Shown in pieces: positions 1-18,682 of a stretch of DNA of 64,000 nucleotides. The stretch is from Bdellovibrio sp. GTDB taxonomy: Bacteria > Bdellovibrionota > Bdellovibrionia > Bdellovibrionales > Bdellovibrionaceae. A program made the position numbers and the translations under genes. The stretch is from NCBI GenBank assembly GCA_036676395.1, contig JAKFCY010000002.1:768001-832000 (forward strand), read 5' to 3'. The notes below the pieces were generated by a model that saw only the letters and a program-made list of their open reading frames with translations, was not told the DNA's origin and ran no database searches. Positions within the stretch are counted from its first letter, which is position 1. Each line of letters begins with the position of its first letter.

Positions 1-31
1 GGATCGCCAATCGCACAAAACAATTGTCGGC

Positions 32-15864: not shown

Positions 15865-16761
15865 ATGAAAAAATGGATGTTCATTATTATATCGTTAAGT
15901 TTAATTTCTTTTTCTTGTAAGAAAAAAATTGAAGACGAGGCGGCGACGGCTTCACTAGAGACTGAAGAGATTGCGCAGCAAGTCGGTGAAACTATGGCAG
16001 CAATTGATGAAGCCGGTGGTTCATCGGGCCAATTTGCATTTATGAAATCGCAGTTAAGAACTTTTGCGCGTGTTACGCCAAATGCATTAGAAAAACCAAG
16101 TTTAATGTCTTTAATTATGCCCACAGCAGAAGCGGCTACGTGTGCTGTAGGACAGACTTTTTCTGGTTGTGTTAGTAATGTAGTTACCCGTAATTTTAAT
16201 AACTGCACGATTGGTACAGCAACAGTGAGCGGCTCTGTAACCTTAACCTATTACGATGCAGGTGTTGATAACACTTGTTCTATGGCTGTTGCGCCAGATC
16301 AAGTTCATCGTAATCCAAATTTTACAGTTTCAACTCCAAGTGGAGCTGTTTTAAGTGTTACAAAAACTTCTACGTGGGGGCAATCAGTTGCTAAGGTATC
16401 TTCTCACTTATTTCGTATCGACAACGATGGTATCAATCGTAAGTTAACATTCAACGGTGCTACATTAATTGATATTACAACGACAATTCCAAACCATATC
16501 ACGGTTTCTGGCGTAGCGCGTGCTGGCCGTACAATGAATGGCGGAGAGGTTTTTACAACTAACAATCTGACTGGTAAAACATGCAGTTTGGTTCCGACAA
16601 ATGTGACATGGAACGGAAGCTGTAACTGTGCGATTTCGGGTAGCTGGTCAGGAAGCTGCAGCGACGGAAACATGGCGACAGTTGATATCACAGGTTGCGG
16701 AACTGCCGATATCACTATCAACGGCGAAGGTAAATCAATTACATTCGATCGTTGCTACTAA
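15865..16761 (+). CDS. Cys-rich, beta-rich lipoprotein
   Basis: AAGGA RBS; lipobox SFS|C at residue 18; Thr/Gly/Cys-rich C-terminal domain. Confidence 0.8.
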   Translation: MKKWMFIIISLSLISFSCKKKIEDEAATASLETEEIAQQVGETMAAIDEAGGSSGQFAFMKSQLRTFARVTPNALEKPSLMSLIMPTAEAATCAVGQTFSGCVSNVVTRNFNNCTIGTATVSGSVTLTYYDAGVDNTCSMAVAPDQVHRNPNFTVSTPSGAVLSVTKTSTWGQSVAKVSSHLFRIDNDGINRKLTFNGATLIDITTTIPNHITVSGVARAGRTMNGGEVFTTNNLTGKTCSLVPTNVTWNGSCNCAISGSWSGSCSDGNMATVDITGCGTADITINGEGKSITFDRCY

Positions 16762-16822
16762 AATAAAAAAATGGCCATCAAGTATTCATGACGGCCATAT
16801 AGTTCTATTAAATAGTTCTAAT

Positions 16823-16858: not shown

Positions 16859-18601
16859 CTATTGAATATATAAATCTGTAGAAACAGCAAACGGTGTTGG
16901 GTTGCTCAAGTTTGAAGAGCTGACCGAACGTTTAACGTCTACTTGTACGCGAATTTGCGCTCCAGCTTTTAAAATTGAAGAAGCTTTGCTTCCTAATAAT
17001 TTAGCTAAGGTCACTTCACCGTTAGCTGCTTGTGCTTGTTCGCGGCTTACAGTTTGTGGCGTGTTGATTGCGCGTAATTTACCGTTTTTCACTTCGAATA
17101 AGCTTAATACGTACTTAGTACTTACTTCGCTAAATTGTTCAGTGCTGTCAGATAATTTGATGTATGCATTTACACCTTGTTGGTTTGGAGCAGTTAATTC
17201 TACTTTAGAAGAATCAGATAAAATCTGAATATCTTCAGAAGTTAAAACACGGCGGTCATAAACTGCTGTGCTAGAAAAAGATAACTGACCATTAGCAATC
17301 ACAGAACCGATACGAGTTGTTTTAACAACGGCCTTGATTTTTGTGTGAGCGCCAATTTGAGCTTGTACGATTAAACCAGTTTTTCCGTTAGCTAATGAAG
17401 TAGCAATACCTTGCTCGATTAAAGCATCAGTCGCTAAATCACGAACTTCAATCTCTGAAGTTGTTTGAACTTTAGAGTGAGTTATTGAATCCGAAAAGCT
17501 GACTACGAATTGATTTAAAAGCGGTGAGTACACAACTTGTAAACCTTTAAGTGATGAAGTTCCAGCATTTGCAGAATCAAATAGTGGTGTTAAACCTAAT
17601 TGCACGTTGATCACTTCGCCAGATTGCGATTGAGAAATCACTTTGTATCCATATAATGAATTCACAGTGGCAACAGTTACTTGGCCCGGTTGAGCTGAAG
17701 TTAAAGTTACTTTTAAAGTTTCAGATTCGTGTGAAGCAAGAACAGCGTCTTGTGGAAAAGAAACTACAACTTGGAATTGTAACTGACGGTCAAACACAGT
17801 TTGTGTTTCAGTTTTGCAACATTTTGTTTCTTCACGGTATTTAGTTACAGTGCGAGTGCGGGTCTCATCACGGTATTTAGTTTCGTCACGGTAACGAGTC
17901 ACTTCTTTTTGGTAAGGTACGCGCACGTTTCCGCACTGTTGTTCAGAGTATGGAACTTGAACGTTACGGCATTCTCTATCAGTGTATGGAACTTGGTGGT
18001 CGCGGCATTCTTGACGAGTGTAAGGAACGTTATTGCAAACTTGTTGGTTTTCGCAACGCTGAGTTGGACCAGTTCCGCTATCACATACGCGACGAGTTTT
18101 ACAAACTTGTTGCCCGTGAGCATTTGTACCACATTCAGTCACATCACGGCATTGGCCCGGTTCGCCAGGAACTAAGTAACATTTTTGTTCGTTACGGCAT
18201 TCTCTGCGGTAGTCAGTTACATTTTGGCAACGGCGTTCATTGCGGTAACGAGTTACGTTTTCACAACGTTGTTCGTTGCGGTAACGTGTTACAGTTTCAC
18301 AGCGATATTCATCGCGGTATTCAGTTACATAATCAGTATAAGGAACTTGAACAGTGTACGGAACTTGAACTGTGTAAGTTTCTTCGACCTGATAAGGTAC
18401 CTGAACTGTGTACGGCACTTGCACTTGTTCTTGGCGAAATAAATTTTTCGACAAGAGTACAGTGGCTTGGTGAGCGCTCGTTGCCGTGCGCGTAATAACT
18501 TGAGCTGTTTGCTCAGACGGTGCCGAATTGGCTGTAGCACTCACGCTTAATGCGGTGATGGCTGCAACAAATAAAGGCAAAAACTTTTTAAACTGGATCA
18601 T
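16859..18601 (-). CDS. Secreted protein with VPY/TxYR repeats and a mirror-symmetric Cys ladder (YTV-like), followed by beta-rich C-terminal domains
   Basis: Signal peptide; VQVPYT and TRYRNE/TKYRDE repeats; 14 symmetric Cys. Confidence 0.85.
   Translation of the reverse strand: MIQFKKFLPLFVAAITALSVSATANSAPSEQTAQVITRTATSAHQATVLLSKNLFRQEQVQVPYTVQVPYQVEETYTVQVPYTVQVPYTDYVTEYRDEYRCETVTRYRNEQRCENVTRYRNERRCQNVTDYRRECRNEQKCYLVPGEPGQCRDVTECGTNAHGQQVCKTRRVCDSGTGPTQRCENQQVCNNVPYTRQECRDHQVPYTDRECRNVQVPYSEQQCGNVRVPYQKEVTRYRDETKYRDETRTRTVTKYREETKCCKTETQTVFDRQLQFQVVVSFPQDAVLASHESETLKVTLTSAQPGQVTVATVNSLYGYKVISQSQSGEVINVQLGLTPLFDSANAGTSSLKGLQVVYSPLLNQFVVSFSDSITHSKVQTTSEIEVRDLATDALIEQGIATSLANGKTGLIVQAQIGAHTKIKAVVKTTRIGSVIANGQLSFSSTAVYDRRVLTSEDIQILSDSSKVELTAPNQQGVNAYIKLSDSTEQFSEVSTKYVLSLFEVKNGKLRAINTPQTVSREQAQAANGEVTLAKLLGSKASSILKAGAQIRVQVDVKRSVSSSNLSNPTPFAVSTDLYIQ
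17810..18424 (-). repeat. Imperfect coding repeats (6- and 12-residue units) forming the putative hairpin
   Basis: VQVPYT repeats, RCENVTRYRNE-type 12-mers and TKYRDE repeats. Confidence 0.85.
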
Positions 18602-18634
18602 TGTGTCCCCCTTTTATTGAACGGGAGACTTAAG

Positions 18635-18650
18635 AGCAACAAGAGTGCCG
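18635..18650 (-). promoter_or_regulatory. Sigma-54-type -24/-12 promoter
   Basis: CGGCACTCTTGTTGCT (GG-N10-GC), 34 bp upstream of the 18601 start. Confidence 0.65.
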
Positions 18651-18682
18651 AAAATTGTCGTCACTAAATGGTGATAAAGTGA

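Follow-up and report, generated by a model that had tools for sequence, protein, structure and literature searches.

A secreted Bdellovibrio protein with a mirror-symmetric cysteine ladder that very probably folds into one long two-stranded ribbon

About 200 residues of a secreted Bdellovibrio protein very probably form a single, very long two-stranded ribbon with seven cross-links, as judged from its sequence and from structure models. The gene is located in a window of 64,000 nucleotides of Bdellovibrio sp. (assembly GCA_036676395.1, contig JAKFCY010000002.1, positions 768,001 to 832,000 of the forward strand). The rod-like hairpin design has no counterpart among solved structures. Taken together, the observations are likely to be explained by a Sec-exported, disulfide-stapled ribbon that is expressed in growth phase from a sigma-54 promoter and would serve as a stalk or spacer.

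Gene and Coding Sequence

All features described here lie on the (-) strand, and their positions are those of the window. The coding sequence, read from the DNA, extends over 16859-18601 and is 580 amino acids in length plus a stop codon. The gene has one copy in the genome, and 227 homologs of the protein were found (E<=1e-3). A ribosome-binding site, aaGGGGG (18607-18613), lies 5-6 nucleotides ahead of the ATG, where aaaagggggacaaaATG is kept across homolog loci. A terminator-like stem-loop with a T run (16771-16798) is located 60 nucleotides past the stop codon. Each neighbor family is limited to at most 12 of 63 homolog loci, so the gene neighborhood offers no operon clue.

Residues 1-24 (18530-18601) read as a Sec-type signal peptide, MIQFKKFLPLFVAAITALSVSATA, with NS following the predicted cut. 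The n, h, and c regions are readable at the N-terminus, as is the A-T-A after which cleavage would occur by the AXA rule. The N-termini of homologs are equivalent, with an A-x-A/Q end and then "AP.E". The mature N-terminal segment (residues 25-44; 18470-18529) contains a conserved "ITRTA.S" strand at residues 33-39. This stretch is a strand with pLDDT of ~97 in the full-length AF2 model and a coil in the hairpin-only model, where the C-terminal domains are left out; the first beta-sandwich probably gains a strand from this segment.

Cysteine Ladder and Pro/Tyr Register

The 14 ladder cysteines are located at residues 101, 113, 125, 135, 141, 151, 157, 167, 173, 183, 189, 199, 211, and 223. They form seven nested pairs, every one of which sums to 324 and all of which are centered on GTNAHGQQV (residues 158-166); in this the first-pass annotation is exact. 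The position-to-position spacing is 12,12,10,6,10,6,10,6,10,6,10,12,12, and the gaps of 11,11,9,5 and so on given in that annotation count the intervening residues and agree. Likewise, all seven Pro/Tyr pairs that it placed opposite each other in this register (P69/Y255 through Y131/P193) are present. When all fold-back registers were scanned for P:Y or P:F pairs, 324 ranked first with seven pairs, and the runner-up had six.

Part of the ladder core, (10,6)n,10, is periodic, and this simple periodicity makes it palindromic trivially. The 12,12...12,12 flanks are beyond what the core periodicity explains, as are the conserved tip, which is unique, and the family data described below.

The N arm (residues 45-157; 18131-18469) and the C arm (residues 167-281; 17759-18103) were each delimited by sequence, AF2, register, and covariation. 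The N arm begins with VPYTVQ-type units (62-91), continues with T(R)YR..RC units that contain Cys 101, 113, 125, 135, 141, 151, and 157, and has an internal loop at 145-150. The C arm contains C..VPY units with Cys 167, 173, 183, 189, 199, 211, and 223, followed by T(R/K)YR(D/E)E units (233-260), and has an internal loop at 174-179. Between the arms is the tip loop (18104-18130), which the innermost rung, C157-C167, would shut.

The ladder cysteines and the arm prolines are all of one strand parity, and every Cys gap in this protein is even. Within beta-sheets, non-hydrogen-bonded cross-strand sites favor disulfides and tolerate proline, and the shared parity of Cys and Pro would fit such sites.

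A vicinal pair, C261-C262 (17816-17821), is located at the hairpin base opposite P63/V62 and is invariant in both homolog alignments. This CC is absent from the first-pass annotation. Across homologs, its distance from the last rung varies in steps of 6 or 12 (26, 32, 38, 50, 56, 62, 74, 86).

Symmetric Variation among Homologs

A hairpin had been expected to show homolog indels symmetrically in both arms, and it does. The Cys spacing is exactly palindromic in 121 of 158 distinct homologs and within 2 residues of it in another 36, counts that overstate independence because of the common descent of the sequences. The rung number ranges from 3 to 12, the latter in homolog L061, and always varies evenly. 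Among 59 distinct Cys spacing patterns, 40 are exact palindromes, and 38 of these are not two-value alternation; they include 8..9..10..9..8 gradients, 12,12 flanks, and central inserts. Asymmetries in spacing are confined to the variable loop gap of 7-13 residues and never affect the C-x5-C gaps.

The outer arms are Cys-free and vary in length together. The N arm equals the C arm plus 10 residues in 100 of the 105 scorable sequences, over eight length classes, while the other five are off by 12-14 residues (52 of 157 sequences, which have no anchor motif, were left unscored). In a MAFFT alignment, 12-residue indels fall in both arms together.

Across the family, P:Y opposition is counted 498 times at the ladder-defined register, versus 204 at -6, 103 at +6, 73 at -7, and 0-9 at the remaining eleven shifts tried. 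APC-corrected mutual information peaks on the mirror diagonal (0.12-0.19), is lower at +/-2, and is ~0 at odd shifts.

Tip loop residues G158, N160, and G163 are nearly invariant. Of 157 homologs, 140 have a central Cys gap of 10, and nine have insertions of 16-102 residues there. The near-palindromic homolog L050 has its geometric center shifted off the conserved tip motif. The apparent asymmetry of homolog L057 is an artefact of masked N bases and was rejected as an exception.

The family has been detected so far in Bdellovibrionota only. The gene is patchy: 301 genomes of the phylum were sampled and 29 have it, as do 21 of 37 from its own family, and the hairpin protein is thus not essential for predation as such.

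Predicted Structure

The full-length AF2 model has a pLDDT of 83.3 and mirror-symmetric strands. The hairpin-only model has a pLDDT of 85.1 with no segment below 50, whereas the full-length run drops below 50 at residues 91-124 and 200-231; pTM is low in both models (0.53 and 0.31). Strands run over 45-144 / 180-281 and 151-159 / 165-173, with boundary sums of 324-326; the breaks between them are a single internal loop, symmetric at 145-150 / 174-179, and the tip loop. Structure prediction, which had been proposed as a check, thus returns one continuous two-stranded hairpin, neither a solenoid nor a globule. A single antiparallel hairpin of ~100 residues per arm is supported as first described; the limits of 60-264 are not, as AF2 gives ~45-281 with the symmetric internal loop inside. 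Antiparallel strands in a fixed register are supported by the AF2 secondary structure, the symmetric indels, and the mirror-diagonal covariation.

In the proposed model, residues ~45-281 would double back into a single antiparallel two-stranded beta-ribbon of ~100 residues per arm. At the standard rise of ~3.3 A per residue, the ribbon may be up to ~30 nm long if straight. It would be composed of complementary 6-residue units, with V-P-Y-x-V-x strands always opposite T-x-Y-R-x-E strands, such that one face would set Pro against Tyr and the other Val/Tyr against Arg/Lys/Glu. Seven nested disulfides (101-223, 113-211, 125-199, 135-189, 141-183, 151-173, and 157-167) would staple the inner half, a putative connectivity drawn from the register and the even Cys gaps. 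At its base, the ribbon would leave and re-enter the first of the C-terminal tandem Ig-like domains.

The genome, which is 99.3 % complete, encodes DsbB and DsbA-like genes, an oxidative folding system. No DsbC_N-type isomerase was found in it. Non-consecutive, nested disulfides normally require an isomerase, and the absence of the DsbC_N domain therefore counts against them.

The C-terminal tandem beta-sandwich (Ig/FnIII-like) domains (residues 282-580; 16862-17758), placed by AF2 and Foldseek, are all-beta with pLDDT of 90-98 in AF2. Foldseek pairs this region with multi-domain Ig-like proteins, including FnIII and complement MG arrays, at low TM (0.11-0.20). The best Foldseek E value (4e-5) belongs to Salmonella SiiE BIg (2yn3), whose consecutive beta-sandwiches resemble the C-terminal 300 residues. 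The TM for this pair is low (0.14 / 0.24) at 12 % identity, and the Pfam BIg model gives no match. A Pfam scan of the 580-residue protein gave no family at E<=10, a PDB sequence search gave 0 matches at E<=1, and the ESM Atlas gave no usable match. The only NCBIfam match, EntB at 19.7 bits against a cut-off of 780, was dismissed as compositional.

Alternative Explanations

Pairing could instead be intermolecular, such that an N arm would meet the C arm of a second chain and antiparallel dimers or polymers would result. This would include a CC-linked, disulfide-cross-linked wall or matrix, as in planctomycete YTV proteins. Covariation and symmetric indels fit intra-chain and swapped pairing equally well. 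In addition, the invariant CC is without an intramolecular partner, its side chains would point toward opposite strand faces, and the YTV relatives are reported as wall-fraction proteins. Pairing of this kind is nevertheless improbable. The tip is short and conserved, its predicted closing rung would join cysteines only 10 residues apart, and rungs running right up to so short a tip favor an intramolecular turn. AF2 also predicts the hairpin fold from one chain at good confidence. A homodimer prediction with two copies of residues 29-285 scored 0.00 and is neutral on self-association.

Insect antifreeze beta-helices and EGF/furin-like repeats are held by local disulfides. A Cys-rich repeat rod or solenoid of this type, in which each C-x5-C shuts its own small loop and the symmetry is a by-product of C-x5-C-x9 periodicity, would account for the invariant 6-residue C-x5-C gap and for a (10,6)n core that is periodic as well as palindromic. 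It is very improbable, since the AF2 strands are continuous over ~100 residues instead of being short, the Cys-free outer arms covary exactly too, and 38 palindromic patterns go beyond simple alternation. The arms are also of different sequence type and hence not tandem copies, the covariation maximum is on the mirror diagonal, and Cys i and i+6 within one strand should be too distant to bond.

The hairpin could also be the stem of an oligomeric beta-barrel, a pore-former or tube with many copies side by side. Long stems of this kind are the top Foldseek matches of the hairpin model and its only ones among solved structures: phi29 tail 6qz9, phage Andhra 8egr, lysenin 5ec5, aerolysin 9fm6, and PA pore 3j9c. 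Lysenin, aerolysin, the PA pore, and phi29 are the sole solved chains with comparably long hairpins. Their TM-scores are 0.09-0.15, a level of likeness that any long hairpin would show. These stems are hairpins only inside oligomeric barrels and have neither a disulfide ladder nor a sequence relation to this protein, the tip of which is not amphipathic. A barrel is highly unlikely here, as GTNAHGQQV has no hydrophobic membrane-spanning stretch, both faces are polar or charged, prolines spaced 6 residues apart along one edge of each section would disrupt hydrogen bonds to a neighboring strand, and the remainder of the protein is Ig-like with no pore-former head domain and no Pfam match. A single-chain, cross-linked ribbon is the preferred reading.

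Relation to Planctomycete YTV Proteins

The first-pass annotation had likened the VPYTV units to planctomycete YTV repeats (PF07639). The resemblance holds at the profile level and fails as Pfam membership. An hhalign alignment of the hairpin family with YTV has a probability of 97.9 % (E 4.2e-13, 78 columns, 42 % identity). In the reciprocal phmmer search, a YTV protein query found five hairpin-family members among the 120 matches listed (P0047 at 1.4e-15, plus P0043, P0028, P0041, and P0044); both searches involve biased, repetitive sequences on both sides. The Pfam YTV model gave one match in the whole genome, at residues 56-90 (18332-18436), which at 16.6 bits is below the gathering score of 21 (E 0.036). 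Positive controls L069, L072, and L074 scored 65-120 bits. By these alignments the repeats of the hairpin protein are distantly related to YTV repeats, below the Pfam threshold.

Both groups are secreted and Cys-rich and share Y-T-V-x-V-P type repeats. Like the hairpin protein, YTV proteins combine two repeat types: the half without the YTV repeats has an ETRTR/TKYR-type repeat, and at the ends the two types are exchanged. They differ in having Cys/Gly-rich N-terminal, central, and C-terminal blocks, which the hairpin protein lacks. The latter instead arranges its Cys in a regular, nested ladder within the arms; it also has C-terminal Ig-like domains and is from a different phylum. Reviews call the YTV domain exclusive to Planctomycetia, and YTV proteins are reported from planctomycete cell-wall preparations.

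A wider "zip-hairpin" class that would unite the Bdellovibrionota family, the planctomycete YTV wall proteins, and short Myxococcota versions, with a growth-phase nanorod in Bdellovibrionota, is a doubtful extension. Its common element would be a (V/T)P(Y)-type strand paired with a T-R/K-rich strand in a two-stranded ribbon that stands free and lacks a hydrophobic core. The Bdellovibrionota ribbon would then be a length-programmable nanorod with arms of 54-130 residues (roughly 18-43 nm) and 3-12 disulfide rungs, adjusted in exact 6/12-residue quanta in both arms at once, with a tip that is sometimes Gly/Pro/His-rich. Made under sigma-54 only during growth inside prey, it might act as a molecular ruler or strut; linked at the invariant CC, copies of it may polymerize to give a transient scaffold between predator and bdelloplast envelope. 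A giant hairpin in the YTV proteins themselves is kept as a lead: when the P:Y register scan was applied to YTV proteins, self-pairing of the YTV region dominated, and the correlation of motif counts was weak (Spearman 0.39, 115 heterogeneous proteins).

Promoter and Expression

A sigma-54 type -24/-12 promoter, cGGCAC-N5-TTGCt (18635-18650), is located 34 nucleotides upstream of the ATG. The first-pass annotation had noted this site. GG and GC are present at canonical spacing and at a fitting distance from the ATG, and the site is kept family-wide. Of 59 homolog genes, 57 have it in their upstream region, in most cases 48-50 nucleotides ahead of the ATG, at up to 2 mismatches with GG and GC fixed; the background expectation is 0.031 per 160 nucleotides. 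The genome encodes RpoN (one Sigma54_DBD match, 216 bits). No sigma-70-like site was found upstream of the gene on its strand. In the proposed model, the gene would be transcribed from the conserved sigma-54 promoter.

Directly upstream of the -24 box is a conserved element, gtGACGACAATTTT (18651-18664), possibly an extended promoter or a regulator contact. Many divergent homolog loci (examples, L002-L007, L009, L011, L018, L027, L029-31, and L034) have the form "ccGACAATTTT" immediately beside the GG box. The conserved GACAATTTT next to the -24 box precedes the hairpin-gene site only, out of 22 sigma-54-like sites with a downstream ORF in the genome, and it therefore defines no co-regulated set.

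The B. bacteriovorus ortholog, which has arms of 84 residues, is Bd1859, as identified by accession, length, and gene order rather than by sequence printed in papers. Its RPKM is 1.3 (7 reads) in attack phase and 40.1 (64 reads) in growth phase, and it was called "silent" by Karunker et al. under their own threshold. The protein has a log2FC of +2.16 at 3 h (FDR 1.8e-24, 35 peptides) and is again at the attack-phase level by 6-7 h. Stage-specific expression, which had been suggested from the promoter, thus holds for this ortholog, in growth phase rather than attack phase. Bd1859 would be made during intraperiplasmic growth, with a protein maximum at ~3 h in the bdelloplast and the attack-phase level after exit. 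In the literature texts searched, no mention was found of Bd1859, WP_011164314, CAE79712, Bb109J_c1672, Bdt_1827, or "Bdellovibrio beta-sandwich", and nothing relevant was found on Bdellovibrio disulfide hairpin repeats.

Discussion

Theta-defensins/retrocyclins, tachyplesin, protegrin, and gomesin are cystine-ladder beta-hairpin peptides of 17-25 residues with 2-3 rungs; they are membrane-active, and some are cyclic. Like the hairpin model, they have two antiparallel strands with parallel (nested) cross-strand disulfides, which in the model are predicted. By contrast, ~240 of the 580 residues of a multidomain protein make up the hairpin described here, with 7 predicted rungs (the family range is 3-12).

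The stalk of streptococcal antigen I/II, a Gram-positive, wall-anchored protein, is an A-region alpha-helix wound with a P-region polyproline-II helix, and it has no disulfides. The logic is shared: N-terminal repeats of one type associate with C-terminal repeats of another to give a long stalk, and the intervening part becomes the tip.

The first-pass annotation proposed a surface stalk, probe, or envelope-spanning ruler as possible roles. The best guess for the function is an extracytoplasmic stalk or spacer that would be rigid and hardened by oxidation. The analogy is with the planctomycete YTV wall proteins, which are rich in disulfides and whose repeats are distantly related. The length of the stalk would be set genetically in 6/12-residue quanta, and it would be deployed while the predator grows within the bdelloplast.

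If the fold is confirmed, no longer monomeric beta-hairpin would be known, and the cystine ladder would be the first at protein scale. The rod would have no hydrophobic core; cross-strand pairs of Pro with Tyr and of Tyr with Arg, together with disulfides, would hold it. The fold would also provide a structural reading for the enigmatic YTV repeats. The symmetric evolutionary editing of arm length is a rare, directly readable record of structural constraint, and the symmetric-arm hairpin is an attractive template for designed rigid spacers. For Bdellovibrio itself, Bd1859 would be an abundant, sigma-54-driven, growth-phase-specific secreted addition to the short list of uncharacterized factors of the intraperiplasmic stage.

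Cysteine Ladder and Mirror Register

The ORF at 16859-18601 (-) encodes a 580-aa product. Its 14 ladder cysteines lie at residues 101, 113, 125, 135, 141, 151, 157, 167, 173, 183, 189, 199, 211, and 223 and make up seven nested pairs (rungs), each with a sum of 324, centred on the tip loop GTNAHGQQV (158-166). Register 324 also brings all seven Pro/Tyr pairs into opposition, from P69/Y255 to Y131/P193. These positions, sums, centre, and oppositions had been proposed in the first-pass annotation, and each number was reproduced by script. A vicinal pair at 261-262 (CC), absent from that annotation, lies opposite P63/V62 in the same register. When every fold-back register was scanned blind for P:Y or P:F pairs, 324 ranked top, with 7 versus 6 in the second-best. 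The core spacing (10,6)n,10 is palindromic by construction because it is periodic; neither the 12,12 flanks nor the unique tip is.

Homolog Family

A Pfam scan of the protein returned no match at E<=10, and an NCBIfam match was rejected as compositional and far below threshold. A PDB sequence search gave 0 matches at E<=1, and hence no relative with a solved structure. A search of 5.8 billion proteins identified 227 homologs at E<=1e-3. Among the matches listed (120 of 227), all are annotated 'hypothetical', and the named sources are Bdellovibrio, Pseudobdellovibrio, or Bdellovibrionota; some homologs are named 'Bdellovibrio beta-sandwich domain-containing protein' in UniRef. The gene has one copy in the window's genome, and its locus has a near-identical (98 %) counterpart, L002. 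Distribution in the phylum is patchy. Of 301 sampled genomes, 29 match at E<=1e-10. The window's own family accounts for 21 of these (among its 37 genomes), and scattered matches occur in four other families. Family proteins are 379-790 aa long and differ in their count of C-terminal Ig/FnIII-like domains.

One MAG contains a second, shorter paralog (L066:2745-3590) in addition to its full-length copy (L007). In the paralog, a signal peptide is combined with a near-palindromic ladder of 16 Cys (the middle 14 exactly palindromic), a (PVDPT)n linker, and just one beta-sandwich; the outer arms and CC are lacking.

Symmetric Indels and Covariation

The 120 proteins were pooled with the ORFs of homolog loci L002-L064. 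ORFs under 350 aa, those with masked X or no CC landmark, and duplicates were excluded, leaving 158 distinct sequences. Cysteine spacing is exactly palindromic in 121 of the 158 and off by no more than 2 residues in 36; the last contains an extra odd cysteine outside an otherwise palindromic ladder. Ladders have 3 (9 sequences), 4 (2), 5 (69), 6 (32), 7 (36), 8 (2), 9 (4), 10 (2), or 12 (1) rungs. The spacings sort into 59 distinct patterns. Forty are exact palindromes, and all but two of them (38) are something other than a two-value alternation. Examples of palindromes are 6,8,6,9,6,9,6,9,6,10,6,9,6,9,6,9,6,8,6 and 10,6,9,6,49,6,9,6,10. All mismatches fall among values 7-13, in the one variable gap, while the C-x5-C gap is invariant and never affected. 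In an independent MAFFT alignment, sequences with a 12-residue gap in one arm have one in the other arm too. Homolog indels are thus symmetric in both arms, as the first-pass annotation had anticipated.

Most sequences (140 of 157) have a central gap of 10, and in nine homologs an insertion of 16-102 residues sits exactly at the ladder centre. Three-rung homologs with such tip insertions are L046, L049, L052, L053, L058, L062, and L063; the inserts of L046, L058, and L062 are Gly/Pro/His-rich and of low complexity, with runs such as GPGGPGG and HRPPP.

The Cys-free outer arms change length in lockstep. The distance from the last ladder cysteine to CC takes values of 26, 32, 38, 50, 56, 62, 74, and 86. 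On the N arm, the first ladder cysteine follows a conserved N-terminal anchor (L[ST][KR][ND]) at this distance plus 10 in 100 of 105 anchor-bearing sequences; five deviate by 12-14, and 52 sequences without an anchor match were left unscored. With the register set by the ladder alone, an N-arm proline lies opposite a C-arm tyrosine 498 times (7603 positions, 157 sequences). Shifted registers give 204 at -6, 103 at +6, 73 at -7, and 0-9 at each of the eleven remaining shifts tested. Because the sequences share descent, these homolog counts overstate independence, as does the inter-arm covariation (APC-corrected mutual information, three stretches aligned separately), which peaks on the mirror diagonal at 0.121, 0.189, and 0.143, is 0.01-0.10 at +/-2, and is approximately 0 at odd shifts. 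Antiparallel strand pairing would be expected to give such a pattern.

In L050:342-2132, the conserved tip motif (ECGTNALGEPIC) lies away from the geometric centre of an 18-Cys ladder. Here the next loop is the centre of a near-palindromic spacing, and N = C+10 still holds for the outer arms. The displaced tip could be a shifted hairpin or a MAG assembly artefact.

Predicted Structure

The full-length AF2 model (89 sequences) has a mean pLDDT of 83.3 and a pTM of 0.53. It contains paired strands at 45-93/231-281, 126-144/180-198, and 151-159/165-173 with a mirror sum of 324-326, and pLDDT is below 50 at residues 91-124 and 200-231. A hairpin-only model of residues 29-285, with the alignment limited to homologs with similar ladders, has a higher mean pLDDT, 85.1, and no segment below 50. 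It is composed of strands 45-144 (100 residues) and 180-281 (102 residues), a symmetric internal loop (145-150/174-179), short strands 151-159/165-173, and a tip loop (160-164). The predicted fold is a two-stranded hairpin, and neither a solenoid nor a globular fold.

Residues 282-580 have pLDDT values of 90-98 and match Ig/FnIII-like domain arrays at low TM, with structural matches to SiiE BIg (E 4e-5), complement MG, and FnIII repeats. A putative Sec signal peptide ending in A-T-A spans residues 1-24. Strand 33-39 is confident (pLDDT ~97) only with the C-terminal domains in the model, which suggests that the whole hairpin may be an excursion out of the first beta-sandwich.

We infer that the ladder cysteines are joined as nested disulfides because of cysteine parity, proline parity, and reach. 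All cysteine gaps are even, so all ladder cysteines lie on one face. Arm prolines share strand parity with them, as expected for non-hydrogen-bonded cross-strand sites, and cysteines i and i+6 of one strand are unable to reach each other. DsbA-like and DsbB genes are present in the window's genome. No DsbC_N-type isomerase was found there, which weighs as a caveat for a non-consecutive ladder.

The giant beta-hairpin proposed initially is supported by symmetric ladder indels, outer-arm lockstep with the P:Y register, covariation, and AF2, four lines that draw largely on the same homolog set. The antiparallel fold-back register of the arms is highly probable, and the full hairpin, nested disulfides included, is likely.

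Relation to YTV Repeat Proteins

Planctomycete proteins from the genome scan are true members of the Pfam YTV family (PF07639), at 65-120 bits. The window protein falls under the YTV threshold, with no hmmscan match and 16.6 bits versus a cut-off of 21 over residues 56-90. The resemblance to YTV repeats noted in the first-pass annotation therefore stops short of Pfam membership, and it holds in two other comparisons, both of biased, repetitive sequence: a profile-profile match between the families (probability 97.9 %, E 4e-13), and a search with a YTV protein as the query, which retrieves five ladder-family members among the matches listed.

YTV proteins follow the same logic as the ladder family. 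YTVxVP repeats occupy one half and ETRTR/TKYR the other; the middle is a Cys/Gly-rich block, and each far end has a short stretch of the opposite type. This layout was seen in L072:3560-6106, L074:3470-5716, L069:2606-4759, and two proteins of the protein search (P0157 and P0159). It is the layout expected if YTV proteins likewise zip into a giant hairpin. Reviews report YTV proteins from cell-wall preparations of planctomycetes and describe them as confined to Planctomycetia.

Three Myxococcota lipoproteins (L065:3083-4753, L067:2219-4678, and L070:1581-3182) contain a short VPY/TxYR hairpin version without the ladder. After a helical/TPR-like N-domain come 4-5 VPY units, a tip that one Cys pair closes (spacing 9 or 5 residues), and TRTVTKYR units.

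Promoter and Gene Surroundings

A sigma-54-type element, cGGCAC-N5-TTGCt, lies at 18650-18635 (-) with canonical -24/-12 spacing. Of 59 homolog genes, 57 are preceded by such an element (no more than 2 mismatches, GG and GC fixed), which starts mostly 48-50 nt before the ATG; four of 63 loci were without a scorable start. The background is 210 matches per 1.08 Mb, or 0.031 per 160 nt, true sites included. The motif ccGACAATTTT adjoins the -24 box in many lineages, and the ribosome-binding site is conserved across homolog loci. An RpoN gene is present in the window's genome. No sigma-70-like promoter was found upstream of the ladder gene on the same strand, and a terminator-like hairpin lies 3' of the gene.

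A scan of the window's genome identified 22 candidate sites, NGG(C/T)A(C/T)-N5-TTGC(A/T/C), with a downstream ORF (examples, C2:331273 +, C2:1323606 +, and C2:1908308 -). Among the genes downstream of these sites are one of flagellar rod type and many ORFs of signal-peptide or lipoprotein type.

The segment 15731-16858, which separates glpK from the ladder gene, contains ORF 15865-16761 (+), which encodes a 298-aa lipoprotein-like, Cys-containing product with a homolog in L005 only. In L002, which is 98 % identical, glpK lies only 46 nt past the ladder gene; this ~1.1-kb segment is therefore an insertion in the window or a deletion in L002. Long antisense ORFs at 17801-18175 (+) and 17950-18495 (+) cross the repeat region, with similar ones in 42 homolog loci. 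Most likely they are not genes and arise because the coding sequence is repetitive and has few stops.

Ortholog Expression During Predation

The B. bacteriovorus HD100 ortholog, CAE79712.1/WP_011164314.1 (537 aa), falls in the cluster of P0100, a protein-search match. In B. bacteriovorus loci, the ortholog is preceded by genes for phosphatidylserine decarboxylase and an FAD-dependent protein, the products given for Bd1861 and Bd1860 in published tables. Bd1859 is tabulated as a 1614-bp 'hypothetical protein' (Karunker et al. 2013), a length of 537 codons plus stop. In supplementary file 2 of that study, RPKM of Bd1859 rises from 1.3 in attack phase to 40.1 at 3 h of growth. The reads are 7 versus 64, the 'GP3 induced' value is 21-fold, and the gene is 'silent' under the study's threshold (Karunker et al. 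2013).

The data of a 2025 quantitative proteome (PMC12546842) list 35 unique peptides for Bd1859, with log2 abundances of 6.4 in attack phase, 6.0 at 30 min, 8.6 at 3 h, and 6.3 at 7 h, and a log2FC at 3 h of +2.16 (FDR 1.8e-24). The stage-specific expression suggested in the first-pass annotation is thus seen for the ortholog in both transcript and protein. From the 3-h peak and the 7-h fall, the protein is therefore made in intraperiplasmic growth and not kept high in released progeny. No mention of it was found in the running text of the searched literature.

Function

The main alternative to a stalk or spacer is intermolecular zippering or cross-linking through CC, at the base of the hairpin. 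A Foldseek search of the hairpin model against the PDB matched only very long stems of oligomeric barrels (TM 0.09-0.15), from phi29 and Andhra tail proteins and from lysenin, aerolysin, and protective-antigen pores; the likeness is generic, and a pore is argued against by the polar tip and faces, the one-edge periodic prolines, and the Ig-like remainder. The nearest known kinds are YTV-like repeat proteins and cystine-ladder hairpins, and the scale and regularity of this ladder hairpin are not previously described in the searched sources. The best guess for its function is an extracytoplasmic stalk or spacer, made rigid by its disulfides and with a length fixed genetically, that the predator would use while growing inside the bdelloplast.
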